Part shown: piece by piece, positions 10,008-64,000 of the stretch
How the letters are laid out: every line of letters starts with the position of its first letter
Position numbering within the stretch: the stretch's first letter is position 1
Virus record (IMG/VR): IMGVR_UViG_3300034198_012226
Span: 22,482 to 86,481 of that record
Length of the DNA stretch: 64,000 bases
Strand: one strand, 5' to 3'
From: a virus
Notes under the pieces: generated by a model
The model's input: the letters and a program-made list of their open reading frames with translations, nothing else
Told to the model about the DNA's origin: nothing
Database searches by the model: none
Made by a program: the position numbers and the translations under genes

Positions 10008-10504
10008 TCGACTACATCGAGAAGGGCGCGGGGCTGCATGAGGCCATTCGCCAAGCTGGCCACTGGCTGCGCCAGGAGAACGGAGAGTGGGTCTCCTCCA
10101 ACGACGAGCTGGTGCAGCTCATCATCAACGACTACTCGCTCGTGCAGGCGCGTGCGCGCAAGTGCGCTGAGGTGACGGCACACGCCAAGGTGTTGCGGGA
10201 CAAGGTCGTGTCCACCATCAGCCCAGGCGAGATGGCGAGCTGGTCGCTGAAGGCCCTGGAGGCGACCAAGTTCAGCGCCAGCGGCAATGCCGCTGACTGC
10301 CCCATGCTGTCGCTGGAGGCCCAGGCCCGCAACATCCCACTTGCCGACCTGGTGGCCAAGGTGCATGGCAACACGCAGAGGTTCAGCATGGCCGAGGCCA
10401 TGATCGGTGGTACCGATGGACGCCACCGTGACACCATTACCGCGCTGGACGACTTCGAGGCCATCAACAACTACGACTTCAGCTCCGGCTGGCCGGTGGT
10501 GTAA
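10004..10504 (+). CDS. Tail fibre assembly-like protein
   Basis: SP.EMASW..K..EA...CP.L..EA.AR pattern; ends YDFSSGWP. Confidence 0.6.
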   Translation: MIDYIEKGAGLHEAIRQAGHWLRQENGEWVSSNDELVQLIINDYSLVQARARKCAEVTAHAKVLRDKVVSTISPGEMASWSLKALEATKFSASGNAADCPMLSLEAQARNIPLADLVAKVHGNTQRFSMAEAMIGGTDGRHRDTITALDDFEAINNYDFSSGWPVV

Positions 10505-36120: not shown

Positions 36121-36592
36121 CGGCCACCTTCGGCTTATACAGTGGGTCAGCCCCGATGTAGATCGCCTCGGGGGCTTCTGGGTAATTGCGACGGATGTAG
36201 TCGAAGTCACCTTCGTTCCACCTGCGGAGGAGATCTACCTTCTCGTCATCGTCGTCCATAAAGCTGCCCTCACCCCCCAGGATGAACTGGATGATGGCTA
36301 CGGCTGCGTCAGTGCCTGTGTAGCTGACCACCGGGGCCTGTCCCTGCTTCATCCGATAGTCGTTGGCACGCTGGAAGGCGTTGCTCGCTGCGTCCATGAC
36401 CTGGGCGTCGGTGCCCAGGGCAGTGGCCATGTAGACGAAGTGCTCGACCACATCAGCAAGGGTCTTCTCCGGGGTGGCCGGAACCCTGGCCAGCGGTGAG
36501 TTGCTACGGTAGTCACCCTTGGTACTGCCGCCGCCCTCAAACTTGAACGTGAATTGGACGCGCACGTCCTTGAATTTATCGCTCACGATCAA
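36050..36592 (-). CDS. Hypothetical protein
   Basis: L..WNEG.FD.IR...PEAP...IGAD motif seen in phage proteins. Confidence 0.6.
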   Translation of the reverse strand: MIVSDKFKDVRVQFTFKFEGGGSTKGDYRSNSPLARVPATPEKTLADVVEHFVYMATALGTDAQVMDAASNAFQRANDYRMKQGQAPVVSYTGTDAAVAIIQFILGGEGSFMDDDDEKVDLLRRWNEGDFDYIRRNYPEAPEAIYIGADPLYKPKVADGPQVDEAGHAEAGPATPDQSGS

Positions 36593-37626
36593 GCAGCCTT
36601 CTGCTGTGGGGTGGCCACGCCAGCGCGTTCAGCAGCGATGGCTTCCTCGATCTCCGGGGTGAACTTGTCCTGGAGCTGGAGCATCAGCTTAATCGCCGCG
36701 CCGGTCAACTCCACCGGGTACATCTCGGTGTCCACGATATTGCGCGGCTTCTTGATCTTGTCCGGCAAGGCGAAGGCAAGGTCACGCGCCGTCTTGGCCT
36801 GGGCTTCCTGGCGCTTCTTCAGGGCCTTGGCTGCGGCCTTCGCAGCGGCCTCCTGTTCGGCTTTCTGGGCGGCGGTGACACTTCCCTCGTCCTCGCCCTC
36901 GTTTTCGCCGCCTGCGTCGTTCTGGGCGGTCTGCTCGTGCTTCGGCGTGACCTTGGTCTCACCCTTGCCCGCAGCCTTGTCCAGCGCGGCCATGATTTCT
37001 TCGTAGGCTTTCTCGCCGTGCTTCTTGTGGTACTTGACCGCTTCCTCGGCGGCGATCTTGTTGGCGCGCACCAGAGCCTTCACGTCGTCCGGCAGCTTCG
37101 AGATCACGATCAGACGGTCGATCCAGCCGACCGACTTGTTCAGTTCCTTGGCGATCTCCTCACGGGTGCAGCCGTCTTCACGGTACCAGATCGTGTGGTC
37201 AGCCTGTTCGATTGGCGTGAGGTGCTCGCCCTGGTTGGCCTTGAAGGACAGGCTGCGGGCCTGGCGTTCGGTGCCGGTGAAGCGGATCACTTCGTATTCG
37301 GTGATGCCCTTCTCGCCGCGTTCACGCATGGCTTTGTCAGCGCGGCACGCTGCGGTGTAGCGGCACTCGCCGTCAACGATCTCGGCGGTGTTGCCGTCCA
37401 TGGCCATGCGGACGATTGGGAGCGGGACGAAGTCGCCAGCCTCGTAGGCAGCTTGCAGCTCGGCGATCTTGGCCTGGGTCTCGGGCTTTTGCAGATCGCG
37501 GGGGTTGAAGCCCTGCTTGACGCTGATGCGATTCAGCGGCAGCTTGAGGTGCTCGGCCTTCTTCACGTCTTCGTTCTCACGCTCGAACTCGCGGAAGTTT
37601 TTGGCTGGCTTGGTATTTGCGGACAT
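36589..37626 (-). CDS. ParB/Srx N-domain protein with HTH
   Basis: GFNPR, IVDGECRY.A, LTPIEQA and EIAKELNKS motifs. Confidence 0.8.
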   Translation of the reverse strand: MSANTKPAKNFREFERENEDVKKAEHLKLPLNRISVKQGFNPRDLQKPETQAKIAELQAAYEAGDFVPLPIVRMAMDGNTAEIVDGECRYTAACRADKAMRERGEKGITEYEVIRFTGTERQARSLSFKANQGEHLTPIEQADHTIWYREDGCTREEIAKELNKSVGWIDRLIVISKLPDDVKALVRANKIAAEEAVKYHKKHGEKAYEEIMAALDKAAGKGETKVTPKHEQTAQNDAGGENEGEDEGSVTAAQKAEQEAAAKAAAKALKKRQEAQAKTARDLAFALPDKIKKPRNIVDTEMYPVELTGAAIKLMLQLQDKFTPEIEEAIAAERAGVATPQQKAA

Positions 37627-37682
37627 GGTGGTATCTCTCATGATTTGAGGTTGGATGGGTACTGCGGGAAGGGTGCTGCGGG

Positions 37683-37904
37683 TTACTGCTTGGACTGGCT
37701 GTCCGGAACGTCGGGATCGAACTCCACGAAGTAACCGTTGCCCTCGACACGCTTCTTCTCGTGGCACTGGGACGGTTTGAAATCGTGGGTGCCCATCAGG
37801 ACGAAGCACAGGGCATTGGCAAGTCGCAGTGCCCTGGTACGGCTGCTTGGGTAGTAGTGCTTGACCACCTTATCGTCCGAGCGTCCGAAGTGGATGGCGT
37901 ACAT
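37683..37904 (-). CDS. Hypothetical protein
   Basis: GAGG RBS. Confidence 0.55.
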   Translation of the reverse strand: MYAIHFGRSDDKVVKHYYPSSRTRALRLANALCFVLMGTHDFKPSQCHEKKRVEGNGYFVEFDPDVPDSQSKQ

Positions 37905-47494: not shown

Positions 47495-47797
47495 TCAGTC
47501 CTCGATGTTGGTGACGCAGACAGGGCGGGTAACGTCGCGCTCGAATTGAACCTTGAACGACTCACCGATGAAGTAGGTGGCAACGAGCAGCAGCTCGCCG
47601 TACTCGGTGTCCTCGACGGACGCAACGACAGCGCCGTCCAGGTTGCGCACCATGCGGCGGGTGACGTTGGGCAGGGCCTCCAGCGGGTTGCTGCCGTAGG
47701 TGACCTTGACGACCGGCTTCTTGCCGCCCTTGCGCTCGGGCTGGCCGTAGTAGGTGGTCTTGATGATGCGCGGGCCGATGACGGTGCCGGTGCTCAT
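47495..47797 (-). CDS. Hypothetical protein
   Basis: Coupled ORF. Confidence 0.6.
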   Translation of the reverse strand: MSTGTVIGPRIIKTTYYGQPERKGGKKPVVKVTYGSNPLEALPNVTRRMVRNLDGAVVASVEDTEYGELLLVATYFIGESFKVQFERDVTRPVCVTNIED

Positions 47798-48222
47798 TCC
47801 TTACCCTCCGCAATGCGGTCGGCCATGGCGGTGACTGCGGCCAGGTCGGCTTCCAGGGAAGTGCTGTTGTCGGCGATCACGTCGTGGCCGTCGTTGCCGT
47901 AGACGAAGTTGACGACGCCACGGTAGGTGCCGTCCGGCAGGTACACGTAGAGGTCTTCCTCGTCGGTAGCGAACATCGCGGCCTTGAGGTACTTCACGTC
48001 GGTGCTTTTCTCGGTGGCCCAGTCTTCGCCGTCGTGGACGCGGAGGACGAAGCCTTCTTCGACTAAGTCGGTGATGACCTTGAACACGATGCGGCGCTCG
48101 ATCACCTGGCGGTTGTGGACGACCAGCTCCTCGGGGGTCAAGTTCTCCTTGCGGCGCGGACGCTTCGGGCCATCTTCGGATTTCGGACGGCCTGGCTTTT
48201 TCAACTCTACTTGGGGGGTCAT
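47794..48222 (-). CDS. Hypothetical protein
   Basis: V.DGE...F.TDE...VYGN.G.DVI.D motif. Confidence 0.65.
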   Translation of the reverse strand: MTPQVELKKPGRPKSEDGPKRPRRKENLTPEELVVHNRQVIERRIVFKVITDLVEEGFVLRVHDGEDWATEKSTDVKYLKAAMFATDEEDLYVYLPDGTYRGVVNFVYGNDGHDVIADNSTSLEADLAAVTAMADRIAEGKE

Positions 48223-48325
48223 GGATTCTCCAGTTGGAGGGTTTTCGCCGACCGGGATTGGTCGGCTACAGTGGGTGTAGCACCGCACGACACAGCCCTG
48301 ACTCGCAGGGCTGTAGCTTGAGGTG

Positions 48326-56323: not shown

Positions 56324-57037
56324 TTAAGCGCCGCCGTTACGCTGCCAAATGGTTTGCTTTTCGACAGGGATTCGCTGGCGATCCAGGGCAGCACATAATG
56401 CGGCTTCACGTTCGTTTTCCAAACGCTCGGCAGCGCCATATTCACGGACAGGGGCAAGTAAATCGAGACCCTTCTGATAACGGCGGCGCAGCTCGTGCAA
56501 TTTGATCGGTTGAATCGTGGTGAGTGGAACTCGGCGACGTACAGGCTTTCCGGTTTCCACGTCGATCTCGGTAATCATAATGCGATGGATCGTGGCACCC
56601 TCGGGTAAATCCTCACCGGCATTATCGGCCAGGTATTTCTCCAATTGCTTGAGCGTCCAGCCCTTGCCATGGATCGTATCGACCAATATGGTTTTGGGTT
56701 GAATCTCGGCAGCTTCACGCAGGCCGACCCAGGCCACGTTCTTGGGATTGAAGCCGGACTTCAGGTTAATGCGCTTGATGAATTGGCGGCGCAGTCCCAG
56801 GGGTTTGGACGGATCAAAGTCCGACTCGAAGAACTCCTCGTTGTCGTCCACGAAGTTATCGAAGTCGTACCAGCGGTGCATGACGGTGATGCCCCTGGCA
56901 CCGACCAGGTGGAACAGCTTGTGGTTGGGATCGTCGCAGGAGTCGAGCATCTTCTTCCACTGCTTGTACATGGGATGGGACTTGTAGCCGTAACGGATGA
57001 CGCGAGCGGGCCGGTCATCCAGGTCAAGGTCGAGCAT
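56324..57037 (-). CDS. Divergent homing-endonuclease-like (HNH-related) protein
   Basis: HP.Y..W..M...C..P........GARGITV..RW..F.NF..D...RI....GFNP.NV.W family pattern; the usual DRID is replaced by KRIN. Confidence 0.65.
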   Translation of the reverse strand: MLDLDLDDRPARVIRYGYKSHPMYKQWKKMLDSCDDPNHKLFHLVGARGITVMHRWYDFDNFVDDNEEFFESDFDPSKPLGLRRQFIKRINLKSGFNPKNVAWVGLREAAEIQPKTILVDTIHGKGWTLKQLEKYLADNAGEDLPEGATIHRIMITEIDVETGKPVRRRVPLTTIQPIKLHELRRRYQKGLDLLAPVREYGAAERLENEREAALCAALDRQRIPVEKQTIWQRNGGA

Positions 57038-57070
57038 GGCGGTTTCCGTTAGTAGTGTGTGGGAATCGTG

Positions 57071-57100
57071 ATTCTACACGTCAATCAAGGATTCCAGAAG
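57071..57100 (-). promoter_or_regulatory. Promoter of the leftward early operon
   Basis: Minus strand GTG-TAGAAT extended -10 with an AT-rich upstream region (57100-57190). Confidence 0.55.
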
Positions 57101-57249
57101 AAAGAGATTCTGAAGTACAAAAAATTTCGTTTAGCAGTCCAAAAATAAAATTTGGATTTGTTTAGACTACTAGGTAAAAACTACCTTGCAGTAAAGCTCC
57201 TCCTATGAGGAGAGGCCGCACTTGCATAAGGTTTAGGCAGTATTCCCTT

Positions 57250-58180
57250 AAATGATGTGGCAAAGTTCTACGCATTTGGTAGATGTGTTACGCCACTTGC
57301 AGTGCGGGTGCCAATGAGCATTCCAATTGGAACACGCATTGGCACCGGCACTGATCCACGCCGTACCCCGTTGGTTGGGGGTCGAGATGGTCATCAGGCG
57401 GTGCTGGCCTCCGGTTGTTGTATCCCCTTTGGCCTTCCCTCGCGTCGAACTGGTCTCGCATCCATTGTGGGCCTCATTGCGGGCCTACACTGGGTGCTGT
57501 CGTCATCTGTACACTGGCGCAGGGCACAACCCCTGTCTTTACCCCTGGGATGCGCTCCCAGTTATCACGGTGAGAATACTGCGCAGGAGGGTATTGCTAT
57601 ATGTCCCTCACTCCTACACTCGTCATTGCCGATCACCCTTACCAGAGGGAACCATTACGGCCGTTTGCCTGCATGACTCTGGTATGTGTACAGTTTGTCC
57701 CTGTGCGCTCCTGATGGGATATAAAAACGGGGCGCTCAAGCGATACCACCCGCGAACGGTAAATGGGGCGCTAGACTGCGATGCCGTTGCACCTGGTGAG
57801 GCACAACGCACAGGGTAGAAACTGTTCGCCGCGTCATCACCAGGCGTAATTCGGCCTGGGACAATCGCGGGAATGTTGCTTTATTCGGTAAATGCCACCG
57901 GCAGCGGATACGCCAGGCTTATCAGAATGTGCGAGTAATGCCAGGGGCATCACCGCGCCATTACTAATGAGCGGGTATCTTTTCGGGTGGCATGTTGTTA
58001 ATGAACCGATCCTATCGAATCACCATGGGCGAGTAATGACAAAGCATCACCGCACAGCATGAGTAATCCGGCAGGATTCGGCGCGCATGGGCGCACCGGG
58101 CAAATTGGCATCGTTTTGTGCCGGTCTGCACTTCAGGATTTAAAGGCCCTGCCTATAGCAAGGCCCTTAAATCCTGCCCC
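57250..58180. ncRNA. Putative large structured non-coding element
   Basis: No credible ORF; many hairpins and long-range complementary segments (see findings). Confidence 0.45.
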
Positions 58181-58208
58181 GTCACCAGGGCAGGCAGGAA
58201 ACTACAGG

Positions 58209-58970
58209 TTAGGCAGCGGCAGGGGCAGCGGCGCGGCGCGCTTTACCTTTACCGGCTGGCTTGCCTTGCTCGGCAGGGGCAGGGGCAGGGGCAGGGGCAG
58301 GGGCACCGGCAGCGGCACCGGCGGCAGCGATAGCGGCACCGGCTTGCTTGTCGGCGAACTCAGCCAGGGCAGCGGCTTTGCCCTCAGCGAACGATTGCGC
58401 CAGGGCGGCAGGCACGCCCAAAGCATTGCGGAAATCGTCCATCAAGCCAGGGGCAGCGCGGCCGGTCACCAGCAAAGCCAGGGCAGCGCGCAGAACGTCG
58501 GAATCCGTCATGATGGAATCAGCCGCCACCAGCCCACGTTCGGCAATTTCTTTCTCGACGGCAACCTTTACGGCAGCGGCTTGCTCCTCGGCCTTCTTGG
58601 CTTTGGCTTGCTCTTTCTCGGCCTCGGTTTTCTCGGCAGGCAGGGCGGCAAGATAGGCAGTCTCGAACACGTTCGCCAGGCGCTCGGCCTCGGCCTCATT
58701 GCGTGCGGCGCGCTCCTCGGCAGTGATTTGCTCTTGCGGCTTGATGAACAGGGCAATGTAACCCACGGCAACAAAGCCAGCGTGAAGGGCCTTGCCCTGG
58801 ATGCTCTTGCTTTTTGCTGCCTCGGCAGCGCCAGCCAGCCAGTATTTATCCGTGCCCTTTACAGCGGTGAGGGCAGCGGTAAAGATGATGTTCAGGCGAA
58901 GGGCGGCACCGGCTTGCTTGTTACCAGCCAGGGCGGCGATTTGAGTTTGAAAGTCAAGATTCTGTTTCAT
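58209..58970 (-). CDS. Ala/Lys-rich first early protein with (PA)n tail
   Basis: AGGAG RBS and its own promoter; long inverted repeat at 58134-58176 downstream. Confidence 0.7.
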   Translation of the reverse strand: MKQNLDFQTQIAALAGNKQAGAALRLNIIFTAALTAVKGTDKYWLAGAAEAAKSKSIQGKALHAGFVAVGYIALFIKPQEQITAEERAARNEAEAERLANVFETAYLAALPAEKTEAEKEQAKAKKAEEQAAAVKVAVEKEIAERGLVAADSIMTDSDVLRAALALLVTGRAAPGLMDDFRNALGVPAALAQSFAEGKAAALAEFADKQAGAAIAAAGAAAGAPAPAPAPAPAEQGKPAGKGKARRAAAPAAA

Positions 58971-59048
58971 GGTTTGATGCTCCTATTTGGAGTGCCCTAC
59001 AGGGCGGGTTATCCGGATCAACAATGCGTTGTCCGTTTGAGAGATTCC

Positions 59049-59077
59049 ATTCTCGCAGAACTCATATACGTTTGCAA
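59049..59077 (-). promoter_or_regulatory. Sigma70-like early promoter
   Basis: Minus strand TTGCAA-N17-GAGAAT. Confidence 0.6.
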
Positions 59078-59189
59078 GTGTTTTCTTTGAAGTGTACGGA
59101 ATATGTTGTTCGTTGTTTCGCCGCCACATTCCCATGTTGCTATCCGGCAACATGTACGAGGGCACTAATAGTTGTCACTCTGACAACAT

Positions 59190-59472
59190 GGGCACCGGCA
59201 CTGGCCATGGCAGCGCCAGGGCAGGCGGCAGGGGCACCGGCACCGGCAGTGCCAGGGCAGGCGGCAGCGGCAGGGGCAGCGCCAGGGGCACCGGCAGTGC
59301 CAGGGCAGGCGGCAGGGGCAGCGCCTATATAGGAGGGCAGCGCCAGGGGCACCGGCAGTGCCAGGGGCAGGGGCACCGGCAGTGCCTATATAGGAGGGCA
59401 GCGCCAGGGGCACCGGCAGTGCCAGGGGCACCGGCACCGGCAGTGCCTAAGCCAGGGGCAGCGGCAGCGCCT
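59190..59472 (+). repeat. GGCA-based low-complexity repeats with 2x CCTATATAGG
   Basis: Recurrent GGCACCGGCAGTGCCAGGG(G)CA units. Confidence 0.85.
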
Positions 59473-59489
59473 ATGTGTTGTTACTCTGA

Positions 59490-59577
59490 CACTCTTATAT
59501 AAGACTTACAGGCACTCTTATATAAGACTTACAGGCACTCTTATATAAGACTTAGGGGCACTCTTATATAAGACTTC
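59490..59577. repeat. 4 x 23-bp tandem repeat, core palindrome TCTTATATAAGA
   Basis: Cores start at 59493, 59516, 59539 and 59562. Confidence 0.95.
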
Positions 59578-59595
59578 ACACTTTTTAACACAAAG

Positions 59596-59654
59596 TTATC
59601 CACAATTGGCACCCCTCAAAACGCATCAGATCGGCCTGTATTGAGTTATCCACA
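59596..59654 (+). promoter_or_regulatory. Two consensus DnaA boxes
   Basis: TTATCCACA at 59596-59604 and 59646-59654. Confidence 0.8.
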
Positions 59655-59706
59655 GGCACCCTACCCTACCCCTTACCAGGGCGGCGAACGTGGCACCAGG
59701 ACGTTT

Positions 59707-59726
59707 TACTGTATATTTATACAGTA
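59707..59726. promoter_or_regulatory. LexA (SOS) box
   Basis: TACTGTATATTTATACAGTA matches the proteobacterial CTG-N10-CAG consensus almost perfectly. Confidence 0.85.
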
Positions 59727-59732
59727 GTTTTT

Positions 59733-59879
59733 GCTTAAAAAATAGGCAGTTTTGGCACCGGATTTGCCTATTATTTAGGCAGCAAACAGGGCAGCGCCAG
59801 GGGCACCGGCACCGGCACCGGCAGTGCCAGGGCAGGCGGCAGGGGCAGCGCCAGGGGCACCCGTGCTTAAATTTTAGGC
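59733..59879. promoter_or_regulatory. Three Fis-like sites and a sigma-54 -24/-12 motif
   Basis: GCTTAAAAAATAGGC (59733), GCCTATTATTTAGGC (59766), GCTTAAATTTTAGGC (59865); TGGCAC-N5-TTGC at 59753-59767. Confidence 0.6.
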
Positions 59880-59940
59880 AGGGCAGGCAGCGCCAGGGCA
59901 GGCGGCAGCGCCAGGGGCACCGGCAGTGCCAGGGCAGGTG
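59788..59940 (+). repeat. GGCA-based low-complexity repeats
   Basis: Same units as 59190-59472. Confidence 0.85.
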
Positions 59941-60170
59941 ACGGGGCAGTCTTTAGCGCGCTGGACGGTGCCGGTGGCGATCCTACCCGCTCAAAAATTC
60001 CCGGCGCATTTTCCAAAAATTCGATGCAATTCCGACAACACCGGCACCGCAGTCGGTGTAGGACATGACGCCGCCCCTGTGTCATCCAGGACACACGGGA
60101 TTTCCAGATGACAAGTGGAACGAACTCATCTATGATTGCCCCCAGTCAAAACAACAGGGGAATCGGAAAC

Positions 60171-60359
60171 ATGTTCAGGCCAACGTCAAACGTCGGGAAA
60201 GCGGCAAAGCGGTCAGCACTGTCCATCATCGCTGGCACCGCCATCGCCACCTCCTACCACGTCGTCATGGGCCAGAACCCTGTCGCCACCCTATCTCTGG
60301 GCGTCGGCGCTCTCATCGGCATCGCCACCCTCATCGCCTACTACAAGCCAGCCAAATGA
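60171..60359 (+). CDS. Small two-TM membrane protein
   Basis: Two hydrophobic segments; first rightward ORF. Confidence 0.5.
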   Translation: MFRPTSNVGKAAKRSALSIIAGTAIATSYHVVMGQNPVATLSLGVGALIGIATLIAYYKPAK

Positions 60360-60808
60360 ACATCTTCGCCCATACCGAACCCACCGGCCCGTACCCCGCC
60401 TACGTCTCGATCAACGACCGGCACAACGACCACGTCACGATCACGGTGCGCAGCCGTGGCAACGACGGGCGCGACATCGGTGCCATGACCATGCCCACCT
60501 GGAAGCTCCGTGAAATGGCCACCAAGCTCCTGGAGCACTGCGACGCCGTCGATGAAACGAACGGCAAACTGAAACAGGCACCGGCACAGCTCCCGAAACC
60601 GCCCCTGGGCAGCTCCCACTTCCCGAGCGTGGACGAGATGGTCAACCGCTTCCTGGGCTGGAAACTGCCCGAAGACTTCTACCCCGACTGCGGCATCCAG
60701 TTCGCCAAGCCCGCTGACCAGCTCTCCTGGCCGACCGGCACCAACCTGCTGCACGCTGGCCAGGCCAAGGGAATGATCCTGCACATCCTGACGGGCGGTG
60801 CCAAGTGA
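60356..60808 (+). CDS. Hypothetical protein
   Basis: YPAYVSIN and MV.RFLGWKLP.DF.PD.GI...P.GTNL conserved phage modules. Confidence 0.65.
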   Translation: MNIFAHTEPTGPYPAYVSINDRHNDHVTITVRSRGNDGRDIGAMTMPTWKLREMATKLLEHCDAVDETNGKLKQAPAQLPKPPLGSSHFPSVDEMVNRFLGWKLPEDFYPDCGIQFAKPADQLSWPTGTNLLHAGQAKGMILHILTGGAK

Positions 60809-60872
60809 GCTTCCTCGCCATTTTCATGATCCTGACGGGCCTGGGTGCCCCGAAACCACCGGAGCCAAAGCC

Positions 60873-61058
60873 GTGAACACCGACACCATCAACCTGCTGC
60901 CCTTCCTGTACTACCTGGCCCTGGGCCTGGGTTGCTACGCCTACGGCCACAAGGCCGGTCGCAAGGACGGCATCAAGGAAGTCTTCGAGAGCGTCCGCAA
61001 GGGCGACTCCTACGAGACCGCCAGCGAAGTCATCTACGGCGAGGTGCTGCCAACATGA
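60873..61058 (+). CDS. Small membrane protein
   Basis: GGAG RBS with GTG; one transmembrane segment. Confidence 0.5.
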   Translation: MNTDTINLLPFLYYLALGLGCYAYGHKAGRKDGIKEVFESVRKGDSYETASEVIYGEVLPT

Positions 61059-62235: not shown

Positions 62236-62481
62236 ATGAAGACCTTATCCCTTCCTCGGCGGGCCAACCGCCATAGGAAATGCCCGAAACGGCTTGAAAT
62301 GTGCATGAAACGGTTGAAAAAGGCCCGAAAAGCACAGGAAACCGAAGAAAAACGTGTGGAATTGGCCGAAATGGTGAACAAATCGGCCCTTTCCATCAAA
62401 AAAGCCGCAGAAAAGTGCGGTATCACCCACAGACAGATGGCCCGGTACGTGGCTGCTGCATCAAGGAACAGCCATGTTTGA
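62236..62481 (+). CDS. Small basic HTH protein
   Basis: LSIKKAAEKCGIT.RQM.RY motif; GGAGG RBS. Confidence 0.6.
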   Translation: MKTLSLPRRANRHRKCPKRLEMCMKRLKKARKAQETEEKRVELAEMVNKSALSIKKAAEKCGITHRQMARYVAAASRNSHV

Positions 62482-62920
62482 AGGCGAAGGCGGGGAGTTC
62501 CCCCGCAAACCCGTTGCACCACTTGACGGAGCGCACATCCCGGTTTCCTCCGTGGACGTGTCGCTCTACAACACCATGGAGCTGCTGACGCTCCGGAACA
62601 AGATCGACGCCAGGCTCCCGCCCATGTCCATGGCCGAGCTGAACCTGGAGGAGGAGGTCGTGCGCCAGTTCATGACCGTCAAGGCGCTCCAGGCCACGAC
62701 CCTGGAAGGCAACGAGGAGGGCAACAAGAAGGCCGCGGTGGTCAACGCCTGCGCCGCCGCCCTCCAGCAGCTCGCCAAGCTCCAGATCGAAATCCACACC
62801 GCCGAGCGATTCAAGAAGATCGAAAACCTGCTCATCAAGCACCTGAAGCTGCTCCCGAAAGAGGCCGCTGAAGCATTCCTCTCGGCCTATGCCGAACTCA
62901 TTCTGGAGCCAAACTCATGA
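62474..62920 (+). CDS. Putative terminase small subunit
   Basis: Helical protein shortly upstream of TerL (position-based call). Confidence 0.45.
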   Translation: MFEGEGGEFPRKPVAPLDGAHIPVSSVDVSLYNTMELLTLRNKIDARLPPMSMAELNLEEEVVRQFMTVKALQATTLEGNEEGNKKAAVVNACAAALQQLAKLQIEIHTAERFKKIENLLIKHLKLLPKEAAEAFLSAYAELILEPNS

Positions 62921-63216: not shown

Positions 63217-64000
63217 ATGACTGACCTGATGCGCGAGCTGGAAAAGCTCGACCCTACACTGGCTTCAGTATTGCGCAATCCCATGTGCAGCGATCCGGCG
63301 TTCCAACGCCATATCGCTCGTATGCTGGCGTCGATGTCGGCCCATGGCCGCGACACAATCTCCGAGTTCATCACGACCAACACCTACCTCAAGGGCGAGC
63401 CGTTCTCGTTCCAGGATCACGAGTACCAGGACTTCATCCTGCGCGATCCGTCGAAGGAGAAGGTCATCATCAAGTCGGCGCAGATGGGCATCTCCGAGAT
63501 GAGCGCCCGCATGGCACTTGCCATGGGCAACCTCATCTCCGGGTTCTCGACCATCTACACCTTGCCTTCGGCGAAGGCGGCGCAGAACTTCATGAAGACC
63601 CGTATCGACCCGATCATCGCCGGGTCGCCGTACCTGAAGGACGCGGTCTCCAAGGCGGTGGACAACACCGAGATGAAGCAGTTCGGCGACTCCTACCTGT
63701 ACCTGAAGGGTGCCCAGGTGGACAGCCAGGCTATTTCCGTCCCGGCTGACATGCTGATCGGCGACGAGGTGGACAACTCGAACCAGGAGGTGTTGACGCT
63801 GTTCGAGTCGCGCCTGATCCACTCGAAACACCAGCTCAACGTGAAGCTGTCCACGCCGTCCGTGCCTGGCTATGGCATCGACAAGGCGTACAAGGAGTCC
63901 CGCCGCCACATCCACTTCTGCAAGTGCAAGCACTGCAACAACTGGTTCGAGCCGGACTACTTCGAGCACGTCAAGATTCCGGACTTCAAGGGCGACATCG
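63217..64000 (+). CDS. Terminase large subunit, lambda GpA-type (3'-truncated)
   Basis: Open frame not in the ORF track: FSFQDHEYQ, IIKSAQMGISE (GpA-type Walker A), LIGDEVD (Walker B), LSTP, CKHC. Confidence 0.9.
   Translation, partial: MTDLMRELEKLDPTLASVLRNPMCSDPAFQRHIARMLASMSAHGRDTISEFITTNTYLKGEPFSFQDHEYQDFILRDPSKEKVIIKSAQMGISEMSARMALAMGNLISGFSTIYTLPSAKAAQNFMKTRIDPIIAGSPYLKDAVSKAVDNTEMKQFGDSYLYLKGAQVDSQAISVPADMLIGDEVDNSNQEVLTLFESRLIHSKHQLNVKLSTPSVPGYGIDKAYKESRRHIHFCKCKHCNNWFEPDYFEHVKIPDFKGDI

Follow-up and report, generated by a model that had tools for sequence, protein, structure and literature searches.

What is the function of a 1.1-kb gap in a phage genome that is filled with regulator-like binding sites and short repeats in place of genes? 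This question is raised by IMG/VR virus record IMGVR_UViG_3300034198_012226 (86,481 nt, 61.6% G+C), of which we analysed bases 22482-86481, a 64,000-nucleotide stretch referred to here as the window, with the gap at window positions 58970-60065. An initial annotation of this DNA had described the region as a non-coding array of host-regulator binding sites at the point where early and late genes diverge, upstream of a GpA-type terminase. The position is borne out, with two gene arms diverging from the gap and the terminase gene starting at 63217, and so is the absence of a gene inside the array: BLASTP of the array's open reading frames (ORFs) of at least 60 amino acids against the fetched viral loci gave no match (E <= 1e-5), and an Rfam search of 57000-60300 returned no match. 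Direct reading also recovered every site that the annotation had listed, each where it had been placed.

A predicted host operator repeated in the gap

The part of the gap that speaks most directly to its function is a row of tandem repeats:

59490-59576 (no strand assigned): four 23-nt units, each with one TCTTATATAAGA, the cores at 59493, 59516, 59539 and 59562

These are the four matches to TCTTATATAAGA found in the 64-kb window when up to two mismatches are allowed, compared to 0.20 expected, and none of 100 shuffled sequences reached four. Each unit has CAC and CTTACAGG as its flanks. When bacterial genomes (one genome per species) were scanned for two TCTTATATAAGA boxes 5-30 nt apart, at least 120 loci were returned, mostly from Comamonadaceae and other Burkholderiales. 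Box spacing is 29-31 nt in 85 of the 120 matches listed, and 82 of these 85 loci carry an isocitrate lyase homologue, with a median distance of 61.5 nt from box to alignment start. Perfect boxes number exactly three in each of three Comamonadaceae genomes, and allowing one mismatch adds none (reversed-pattern controls gave 0, 2 and 0 matches). In all three genomes the third box lies ~55 nt upstream of a gene encoding a GntR+UTRA (HutC-subfamily) regulator, situated between mdh and sdhC. This pattern, with boxes at both isocitrate lyase and the regulator's own gene, is classically that of an autoregulated repressor with its operator.

Excerpts of a comparative-genomics study (Suvorova, Korostelev, Gelfand, PLoS One 2015, PMC4494728) give the motif predicted for the regulator SdhR in Betaproteobacteria as a palindrome with additional symmetry, which contains the 12-mer. 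Because the TCTTATATAAGA core matches both this motif and the host boxes, the apparent iterons of the window are, judged by their sequence, exact copies of the predicted core operator of SdhR, a HutC/GntR regulator of the host. The identity covers the 12-nt core; the outer symmetry of the published motif, TCTTATG ... CATAAGA, is absent from the window units, and their role as operators here is a prediction. Arrangement differs as well, since host SdhR sites comprise two boxes 29-31 nt apart at isocitrate lyase and one at the regulator gene, whereas those of the phage number four and repeat every 23 nt. The 16 nt TCTTATATAAGACTTA are common to the window units and the host box 2 consensus, and the units' flank resembles that of this host box. 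We rejected the idea that the phage had copied the host isocitrate lyase promoter, as blastn-short finds nothing shared beyond the boxes. No GntR-family protein is encoded by the phage, and a phmmer search of the fetched viral ORFs with the host GntR protein found no relative (E <= 10).

Host isocitrate lyase loci (L054-L173) are ordered as one or two TTTCA...TGAAA-type palindromes, an integration host factor (IHF)-like TAAGYNNTTGATTT, an A-tract, box 1, box 2 and CTTAGAAT. Of 85 loci, 19 have GGC[AC]N-N5-TTGC after box 2, and in 16 of these it is offset by exactly 17 nt, so that in some species the host gene may have a sigma-54-type promoter or a further operator. The upstream TTTCA...TGAAA palindrome is absent from the window. 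Three further occurrences of the boxes in bacterial records deserve mention. Prochlorococcus single-cell genomes (L062, L074, L080, L106, L109 and others; 28-30% G+C) carry 12-mer pairs 35 nt apart. A Burkholderiales metagenome-assembled genome (MAG) of 44% G+C has two boxes at the phage spacing of 23 nt (L171:7097-7136), directly upstream of a gene that, judged from its sequence, reads like an H+-translocating pyrophosphatase. The box and isocitrate lyase region of L102, labelled as an Akkermansia muciniphila MAG, is near-identical to that of Limnohabitans L091, probably owing to a binning or labelling error. Full-text literature searches for SdhR and phage together found no link between the two; a text search with the core 10-mer gave no bacterial or phage context among the matches listed, and a search combining GntR, isocitrate lyase and succinate dehydrogenase gave nothing specific.

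SdhR-type boxes in other viral contigs

The same pattern, two TCTTATATAAGA boxes 5-30 nt apart, was used to scan viral contigs and is present in 43 of them, ranging from 35% to 58% G+C, with the 23-nt period of the window in 25 of the 43. The outer symmetry of the published motif occurs in 37 of 104 boxes, with at least one such box in 26 of the 43 viral loci. With ~0.3% expected per box, this is far above expectation and indicates that many of the viral boxes are SdhR-type sites rather than look-alikes. As 13 pairs of these loci share more than 20% of their 21-mers, counts of viral loci overstate their independence.

Gene clustering and PHROG scans revealed three types of terminase near the boxes: the GpA type in the window, L005, L011, L013 and L027; a 420-amino-acid type in 20 loci, alongside a portal cluster present in 14 loci; and a third type in L012, L026, L044 and L047. 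A small gene lies 352-760 nt downstream of the boxes in 18 loci and is mostly followed by the large terminase and portal genes, and on the other side of the boxes, loci with the 420-amino-acid terminase or its small gene encode a T7-like primase-helicase in seven cases and a DNA polymerase in six. In L012 and L026, the boxes head a block of tail-spike and terminase genes. The position of the boxes at the head of structural genes recurs across phages.

Other sites gather around the viral boxes. Of 35 perfect DnaA boxes, 33 fall within 500 nt of the repeats, a zone making up 11% of the sequence, in 11 loci and with up to seven per locus. The same zone holds six of 11 perfect sigma-54 consensus sites, in four loci (P = 6e-4). 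Among relatives of the terminase, relaxed DnaA boxes stand beside the repeats in L011 (four of the locus's four) and L027 (two of two). The boxes lie no more than 300 nt from a contig end in 12 of 43 contigs, compared to 2.4 expected, which may reflect genome ends or assembly breaks at repeats.

Several additional patterns accompany the viral boxes. Short tandem arrays lie beside them in L017 (CTGACTCTCTGTG units, 10117-10190), L011 (CTGTGCATAAC units, which are relaxed DnaA boxes, 745-820) and L037 (30-nt repeats). Phages with the 420-amino-acid terminase (L015, L016, L018, L022, L024, L030, L031, L040, L043 and others) have a G-rich GGGGGGAGGGG-like box and a conserved CC.AGATACAAAA after the boxes, toward the small gene. 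TTTCAC-N3-GTGAAA, with up to two mismatches, occurs in 8 of 43 viral loci and 41 of 85 host loci, and is within 400 nt of SdhR-type boxes in viral loci L018, L026, L044 and L047. A common box-binding protein encoded by the phages themselves (window 47794-48288, L028 and L034) was considered and dropped, its profile finding three loci, with two further weak hits, among all fetched viral ORFs.

Companion sites, filler arrays and genome context

The remainder of the gap is best read against three relatives of the phage, L005, L006 and L007, whose terminases are 84%, 76% and 69% identical to that of the window. From left to right, the further features of the gap are:

59133-59154 (no strand assigned): palindrome CATGTTGC-N6-GCAACATG, candidate phage-specific operator
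59171-59187 (no strand assigned): palindrome GTTGTCA-N3-TGACAAC, candidate phage-specific operator, heading filler array 1
59186-59480 (+): filler array 1, ~49 same-strand hexamers G[GC]CA[GC]N, with three copies of a 61-nt higher-order unit
59240-59424 (-): four identical TGGCACTGCCGGTGC elements at 59240, 59288, 59349 and 59410, one mismatch from TGGCAC-N5-TTGC
59324 and 59385: two CCTATATAGG palindromes inside filler array 1
59596-59654 (+): two perfect DnaA-type boxes TTATCCACA at 59596 and 59646, on the same strand, with AG before each
59690-59726 (+): sigma-70-like rightward promoter GTGGCA-16-TATATT, 9 of 12 matches, its -10 inside the SOS-type palindrome
59707-59726: SOS-type palindrome TACTGTATATTTATACAGTA, 20 nt, 0 mismatches
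59732-59880 (no strand assigned): three 17-nt palindromes TGCYTA-N5-TAGGCA at 59732, 59765 and 59864, previously annotated as Fis-type 15-mers
59753-59767 (+): perfect sigma-54-type -24/-12 element TGGCACCGGATTTGC, TGGCAC-N5-TTGC, rightward
59775-59945 (+): filler array 2, of the same hexamer family and on the same strand as array 1
59938-60040 (+): conserved right-hand element GTGACGGGG.AGTC ... CTCAAAAATT ... CATTTTCCAAAA.TTCGATG, aligning with L005, L006 and partly L007

The initial annotation had taken these sites together for near-consensus host sites, a view that survives in part. It stands for the SdhR operators and for the SOS-type box, both of which recur in host-family genomes. The SOS-type palindrome has one match in the window against 0.01 expected with up to three mismatches allowed, and at up to two mismatches host-family genomes contain one to five such boxes each (0-1 in reversed-pattern controls), among them one lying directly upstream of a gene for a DnaE2-like protein and one upstream of an AlkB-like gene. 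The strings searched, namely what we take to be the CTGT-N8-ACAG type SOS (LexA) consensus and the consensus sequences for DnaA and sigma-54, come in part from the initial annotation. For DnaA, the two TTATCCACA boxes are the sole perfect copies in the window, and allowing one mismatch yields eight matches against 5.1 expected; relaxed matches are thus near expectation, and only the perfect pair 50 nt apart stands out. TGGCAC-N5-TTGC likewise has its only perfect window copy at 59753, with 17 matches against 6.0 expected, seven of them in the gap region, once a single mismatch is allowed.

By contrast, the Fis assignment is not supported. The three G-N13-C 15-mers make up the interior of a 17-nt palindrome, which is conserved in L005 and has a single match in 11.8 Mb of host-family DNA (three genomes), and when the one-mismatch site at 57223 is included, TGCYTA-N5-TAGGCA has eight strand-matches in the window compared to 0.09 expected. 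Retention in L005 together with near-absence from the host family makes a phage-specific operator likelier than a Fis site. Neither GTTGTCA-N3-TGACAAC (up to one mismatch, three Comamonadaceae genomes) nor CCTATATAGG (three host-family genomes) was found in host DNA, and we read both of these, along with TGCYTA-N5-TAGGCA, as putative operators of phage proteins. A degenerate copy of the GTTGTCA palindrome lies at 59477-59491, and the TTGC...GCAAC core of the palindrome at 59133-59154 aligns with L005 and L006. The right-hand element at 59938-60040, which closely precedes the first rightward gene, may be a promoter or control site of the phage. Within the gap, A+T content peaks in the 40-mers at 59705 (82% A+T) and 59560 (75% A+T); these fall on the SOS palindrome and the boxes, and repeated 13-mers are absent.

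The low-complexity GGCA/TGCC filler described between the sites is real and resolves into two highly ordered arrays, with GGCA at 105 per kb compared to 8.4 per kb genome-wide. Splitting the arrays at each GGCA or GCCA gives pieces of exactly 6 nt in 29 of 42 cases for array 1 and 14 of 25 for array 2, and Tandem Repeats Finder reports periods of 6, 12, 18, 24, 36, 48 and 61, the higher-order units measuring 18-61 nt. The reading frame shifts at each CCTATATAGG site within the array. The TGGCACTGCCGGTGC elements are a recurring 18-mer of the filler, with two more copies in array 2 (59815 and 59917; six in total). Arising as they do from tandem repeats, these copies are not independent events, and because their sigma-54-like property is absent from the arrays of L005, L006 and L007 we treat TGGCACTGCCGGTGC as a lead only. 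Pure hexamer microsatellites in the relatives indicate that the arrays grow by slippage, and GGCA is the outer half-site of TGCYTA-N5-TAGGCA, which suggests rows of half-sites for one phage protein. We infer that the filler most likely consists of slippage-grown rows of GGCA half-sites for a phage protein, which is the weakest step of our account. As a separate observation, the Aeromonas veronii plasmid pHm21 (L199/L200) has at least ~40 GGGGCA/GGGCAA hexamers across its record start, followed by CCCCTAATTTTTTGAAAATTTTC, an A/T box resembling the right-hand box of L006; no terminase relative was found on pHm21.

A search with a terminase fragment returned six viral loci, and a metagenome scan with the same fragment gave seven loci and zero new syntenic arrays. 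L005 keeps GTTGTCA-N3-TGACAAC, a GGCA-type filler with ~17 tandem GGCAGT and the right-hand box, and has two TGCCTA-N5-TAGGCA palindromes as well as two perfect and two near-perfect SdhR-type boxes; a fifth box aligns at the first DnaA box of the window. Its syntenic region has no perfect DnaA box (one relaxed), no SOS box and no sigma-54 consensus. In L006 the modules stand in another order with a GCC/GGC-rich filler, and the SOS box is kept along with the same left flank, GGACGTTTT; SdhR-type boxes and even relaxed DnaA boxes are absent, and the sigma-54 consensus has only a one-mismatch minus-strand match. In L007, TATAAACAGTTTATACAGTT repeats are framed by (ATGAACCAGAGC)x7 and an inverted (TCTGGT)x9; the host sites are all missing, as are the 23-nt repeats and even relaxed DnaA boxes. 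The relatives thus retain the layout of sites plus filler, with different site sets, shuffled order and different filler, which is the outcome predicted by the comparison that the initial annotation had proposed. Since the host sites vary while the palindromes and short-period arrays persist, the host-factor sites appear to be lineage-specific additions to a conserved frame, and the persistence of arrays at the same spot down to 69% terminase identity, with differing units, points to some constraint. L008, a more distant locus of this group, has other genes at that position; in it CCAGGCCCCTC...TTTTTCAAAC, which resembles the start of the L006 right-hand box, occurs twice (20-80 and 540-600), with one copy ahead of each member of a pair of small paralogous ORFs.

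The genes nearest to the gap are:

58209-58970 (-): P0001, first leftward (early-side) gene, 253 amino acids with an Ala/Lys/Pro-rich tail and an AGGAG ribosome-binding site before its ATG
60065-60808 (+): first rightward gene, 247 amino acids, no assigned function
62474-62920: likely small terminase gene, conserved with nine loci, 2.5 kb right of the array

In an ORF map guided by G+C content at third codon positions (GC3), the rightward arm runs from window position 60065 across the record ends to ~33.9 kb of the genome and includes the GpA-type large terminase, the portal, a 2592-amino-acid protein and tail genes, and the leftward arm runs from 58970 down to ~11500 and encodes ribonucleotide reductase, a 959-amino-acid primase, a helicase and a ParB-like protein (36589-37809). 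P0001 matches no Pfam or PHROG family and has no relative among named phages; it has a homologue in L005 (46% identical) and only one further homologue among 5.8 billion protein clusters. Against named phages, the 247-amino-acid protein matches in its C-terminal domain only, and a search of viral contigs with both proteins gave no relatives. Six-frame searches of the whole record found no tyrosine integrase, CbiA-type ParA, GntR-family protein, sigma-54 activator or Rep_3 initiator, the last at a threshold of E <= 0.1 and with Rep_3 as the initiator family covered. At the DNA level, 58000-61000 is not similar to any named phage and has weak matches to plasmids that are confined to the filler.

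The record closes on itself via an 87-nt overlap inside the terminase gene. Cumulative GC skew is lowest at genome position 32380 and highest at 82458 (window 59977). The maximum tracks the switch in coding strand, and its sign is that of a terminus under the bacterial convention, so it gives no support for an origin; in both arms the coding strand is rich in C, contrary to the usual purine loading. Logan contigs, taken from four of nine public sequencing runs, break exactly at the filler arrays. In wastewater runs X3 and X7, contigs are ~90% alike over 59548-59829 and parts of the flanking genes, suggesting that a close relative of the phage is present in these samples. To the left of P0001, a second gene-poor stretch (57040-58200) holds TGCATA-N5-TAGGCA at 57223, one mismatch from the phage palindrome, and a one-mismatch sigma-54-like element at 57299 on the minus strand, and may be part of the same control system as the main gap.

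Weighing the function of the gap

Tentatively, and with confidence that stops just short of an even chance, we favour the reading that the gap is a cis-acting hub in which host factors gate transcription, and probably replication, beside phage-specific operators, and by which the phage probably senses, or interferes with, the physiology of the infected cell. SdhR and LexA bound to the incoming genome would hold back rightward, late-side transcription, while DnaA would mark or assist the start of replication in the same region. Relief would come from the state of the host, through the SdhR effector or DNA damage, and from copy number, as a few hundred genomes with four operators each would outnumber an autoregulated repressor that has three perfect chromosomal sites. 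Given those three sites and the autoregulation of SdhR, an amplified four-site phage genome must compete for the repressor. Loss of SdhR would release the phage promoters along with, secondarily, host isocitrate lyase and the operon of the regulator itself; titration, which follows from any binding, could then act as a copy-number timer for the late genes. On this model, the host sites would be add-on inputs to a core made of the phage-specific GTTG palindromes, TGCYTA-N5-TAGGCA, the right-hand box and the hexamer arrays. A role in cis is suggested by the SOS box, which overlaps the -10 of the only decent rightward promoter-like site, where it could block the promoter, and which is conserved with its flank in L006. 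Also in favour of the hub are the sequence identity of the operators, the sigma-54 consensus sites found with the boxes in several phages, the recurring place of the boxes ahead of the late genes, and host sites that differ among relatives in the manner of accessory inputs.

A number of observations weigh against this hub. The SdhR-type boxes lie ~500 nt from either flanking gene, far for classical operators, and a promoter scan of the gap finds two weak sigma-70-like sites against 0.8 expected and zero leftward ones. None of L005, L006 and L007 conserves the sigma-54 element, and the phage has no Sigma54_activat gene, although a host protein may supply the activator. Clustering of DnaA boxes at the viral repeats fits an origin or a sponge as well as it fits regulation, and the GGCA hexamer filler is explained by none of the readings that we tested. 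Pairs of the 12-mer at other spacings occur in Bacteroidaceae, Phascolarctobacterium, Bradyrhizobium and Prochlorococcus, so that not every occurrence need be an SdhR site. The host, moreover, is a prediction: we infer a Comamonadaceae-like member of the Burkholderiales from the operator, the 61.6% G+C and the type of SOS box, and the terminase has a relative in one of 201 genomes of that family, at 48% identity, which is uninformative for the host.

Alternatively, the gap may be mainly a replication origin, where DnaA and a protein arrayed on the 23-nt repeats would open AT-rich DNA for loading of the phage primase and helicase, the other sites being incidental. The tandem repeats stand beside two perfect DnaA boxes and the AT-rich 40-mers at 59705 and 59560, the gap is the divergence point of both arms, genes for a primase, a helicase and DNA polymerase I are present in the phage itself, and DnaA boxes accompany the repeats elsewhere, both across the 43 viral loci (33 of 35 perfect boxes) and, in relaxed form, in L011 and L027. 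We nevertheless hold an origin to be unlikely as the main function. Its repeats match the operator of a host regulator rather than the site of a replicon initiator, no Rep_3-type initiator was found, and the GC-skew peak at 59977 mirrors the coding strand and lends no support. An origin core should be conserved, and the reading is weakened by the differing site sets of the closest relatives, which are poor in DnaA boxes (one relaxed in L005, none in L006 and L007) and, in L006 and L007, lack the repeats. Titration may instead be the selected function, with sites that have no cis role and an amplified genome that soaks up SdhR, DnaA, LexA and perhaps the sigma-54 holoenzyme, thereby derepressing glyoxylate shunt, tricarboxylic acid (TCA) cycle and SOS genes and blocking initiation on the host chromosome. 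Such a dedicated sponge would account for four perfect operators in 80 nt compared to three per 3.7-4.1-Mb host-family genome, for seven sigma-54-like elements within 0.8 kb, for the distance of the sites from the flanking genes, for site sets that differ between relatives as add-ons would, and for repeated acquisition of SdhR-type and DnaA boxes in three terminase lineages; excerpts of a study of a synthetic yeast system describe tandem decoy sites sequestering a regulator (PMC3322331). It seems to us improbable, however. Titration would follow from any binding and need not be selected, four of the site types appear to be phage-specific rather than host sites, and the SOS box that overlaps the promoter-like site and is kept with its flank in L006 points to a role in cis. 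Nor would a sponge need to stand consistently at the start of the late operon across unrelated phages, although that position may reflect where non-coding space is available.

The layout also invites a structural explanation, in which a unique centre between short-repeat arrays, with DnaA boxes as in T5, marks a genome end, a concatemer junction or an injection-stop region. Two same-strand short-repeat arrays do surround a 300-nt centre, viral contigs end near the boxes more often than expected (12 of 43 against 2.4), and the best named matches of the terminase include many phages of Staphylococcus, Bacillus and Listeria, a group that packages defined ends with long terminal repeats. In many phages early genes adjoin the entering end, as they adjoin the gap here. 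Assemblers also break contigs at repeats, though, as Logan contigs do at these arrays, and the record is a circular assembly whose overlap falls inside the terminase gene. The likely small terminase gene lies 2.5 kb farther right, so that a lambda-like cos site would not be expected within the array; we strongly doubt this account. Least credible to us are readings that centre on the filler itself, as neutral microsatellite growth, a low-complexity Gly/Ala/Arg-rich protein or a partition centromere. Relatives with pure hexamer microsatellites (~17 GGCAGT in L005; (TCTGGT)x9 and (ATGAACCAGAGC)x7 in L007) would suit neutral growth, yet arrays persist at the same place as far as L007, at 69% terminase identity, with differing units. 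ORFs such as 59092-59502 stay open, but the frame changes at each CCTATATAGG and no array ORF was matched in any relative. Ribbon-helix-helix partition proteins bind rows of short direct repeats, and the phage has a ParB-like gene at 36589-37809; that gene is the sole one of its kind, lies 21 kb away and is not accompanied by a ParA/CbiA ATPase in the genome.

The cis-acting hub that we favour has partial counterparts in known systems. Iteron origins such as RK2 oriV and P1 oriR combine ~22-nt tandem repeats, DnaA boxes, AT-rich DNA and a neighbouring G+C-rich stretch, all of which have equivalents in the window; unlike these origins, the phage has no Rep_3-type Rep that we found, no ParA and no integrase, its repeats are those of a host operator, and its core is not conserved. 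In phage T7, short direct-repeat arrays flank the terminal repeat and all genes run in one direction. The window similarly has two rows of short direct repeats around a short central segment at a genome junction, and differs in having distinct units and divergent genes. LexA-controlled phages, and cyanophages with NtcA or PhoB boxes, place host-regulator sites in phage DNA. In the parts of the T5 account consulted (Davison, bioRxiv 10.1101/866236), the injection-stop (iss) region, which lies in the left terminal repeat, is untranslated and contains repeats, palindromes and eight DnaA boxes. The gap resembles it in being a large untranslated region beside the first-expressed genes with repeats, inverted repeats, palindromes and DnaA boxes. 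T5-like phages, however, are described there as having eight DnaA boxes in a fixed arrangement, compared to two in the window and 0-1 relaxed boxes in its closest relatives, and those parts of the account name no other host-regulator sites and present the role of DnaA in T5 itself as a proposal. Excerpts on phages of Alphaproteobacteria (PMC9437464) describe CtrA boxes, sites of a host regulator, as sensors of host state. As in those phages, host transcription-factor sites recur here in phage regulatory DNA across lineages infecting one host clade; the window departs from them in its central-carbon regulator, in tandem perfect sites far from genes, and in the combination with DnaA, SOS and sigma-54-type sites.

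Together, these comparisons place the gap in a known kind of element, phage regulatory or origin DNA that uses host factors. What appear to be new are the tandem operators of a central-carbon regulator in unrelated phages and the hexamer-phased arrays. A bolder generalization, that phages infecting freshwater Burkholderiales-type hosts carry gene-free "regulator sponges" of SdhR operators with DnaA, SOS and sigma-54-like sites, deplete the cell of these low-abundance proteins once their genomes have multiplied, and achieve metabolic takeover via non-coding DNA in place of auxiliary metabolic genes, strikes us as improbable too. If the boxes do bind SdhR, they would link phage development directly to host central carbon metabolism through non-coding DNA, in a pattern shared by no fewer than three terminase lineages and by 43 phage contigs from the environment. 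The state of the TCA cycle and glyoxylate shunt would then be a new input among the host signals read by phages, and metabolic reprogramming would be possible without any phage protein. An exact host operator in a phage genome would also serve as a host-prediction marker for uncultured phages, and here it points to Comamonadaceae-like Burkholderiales.

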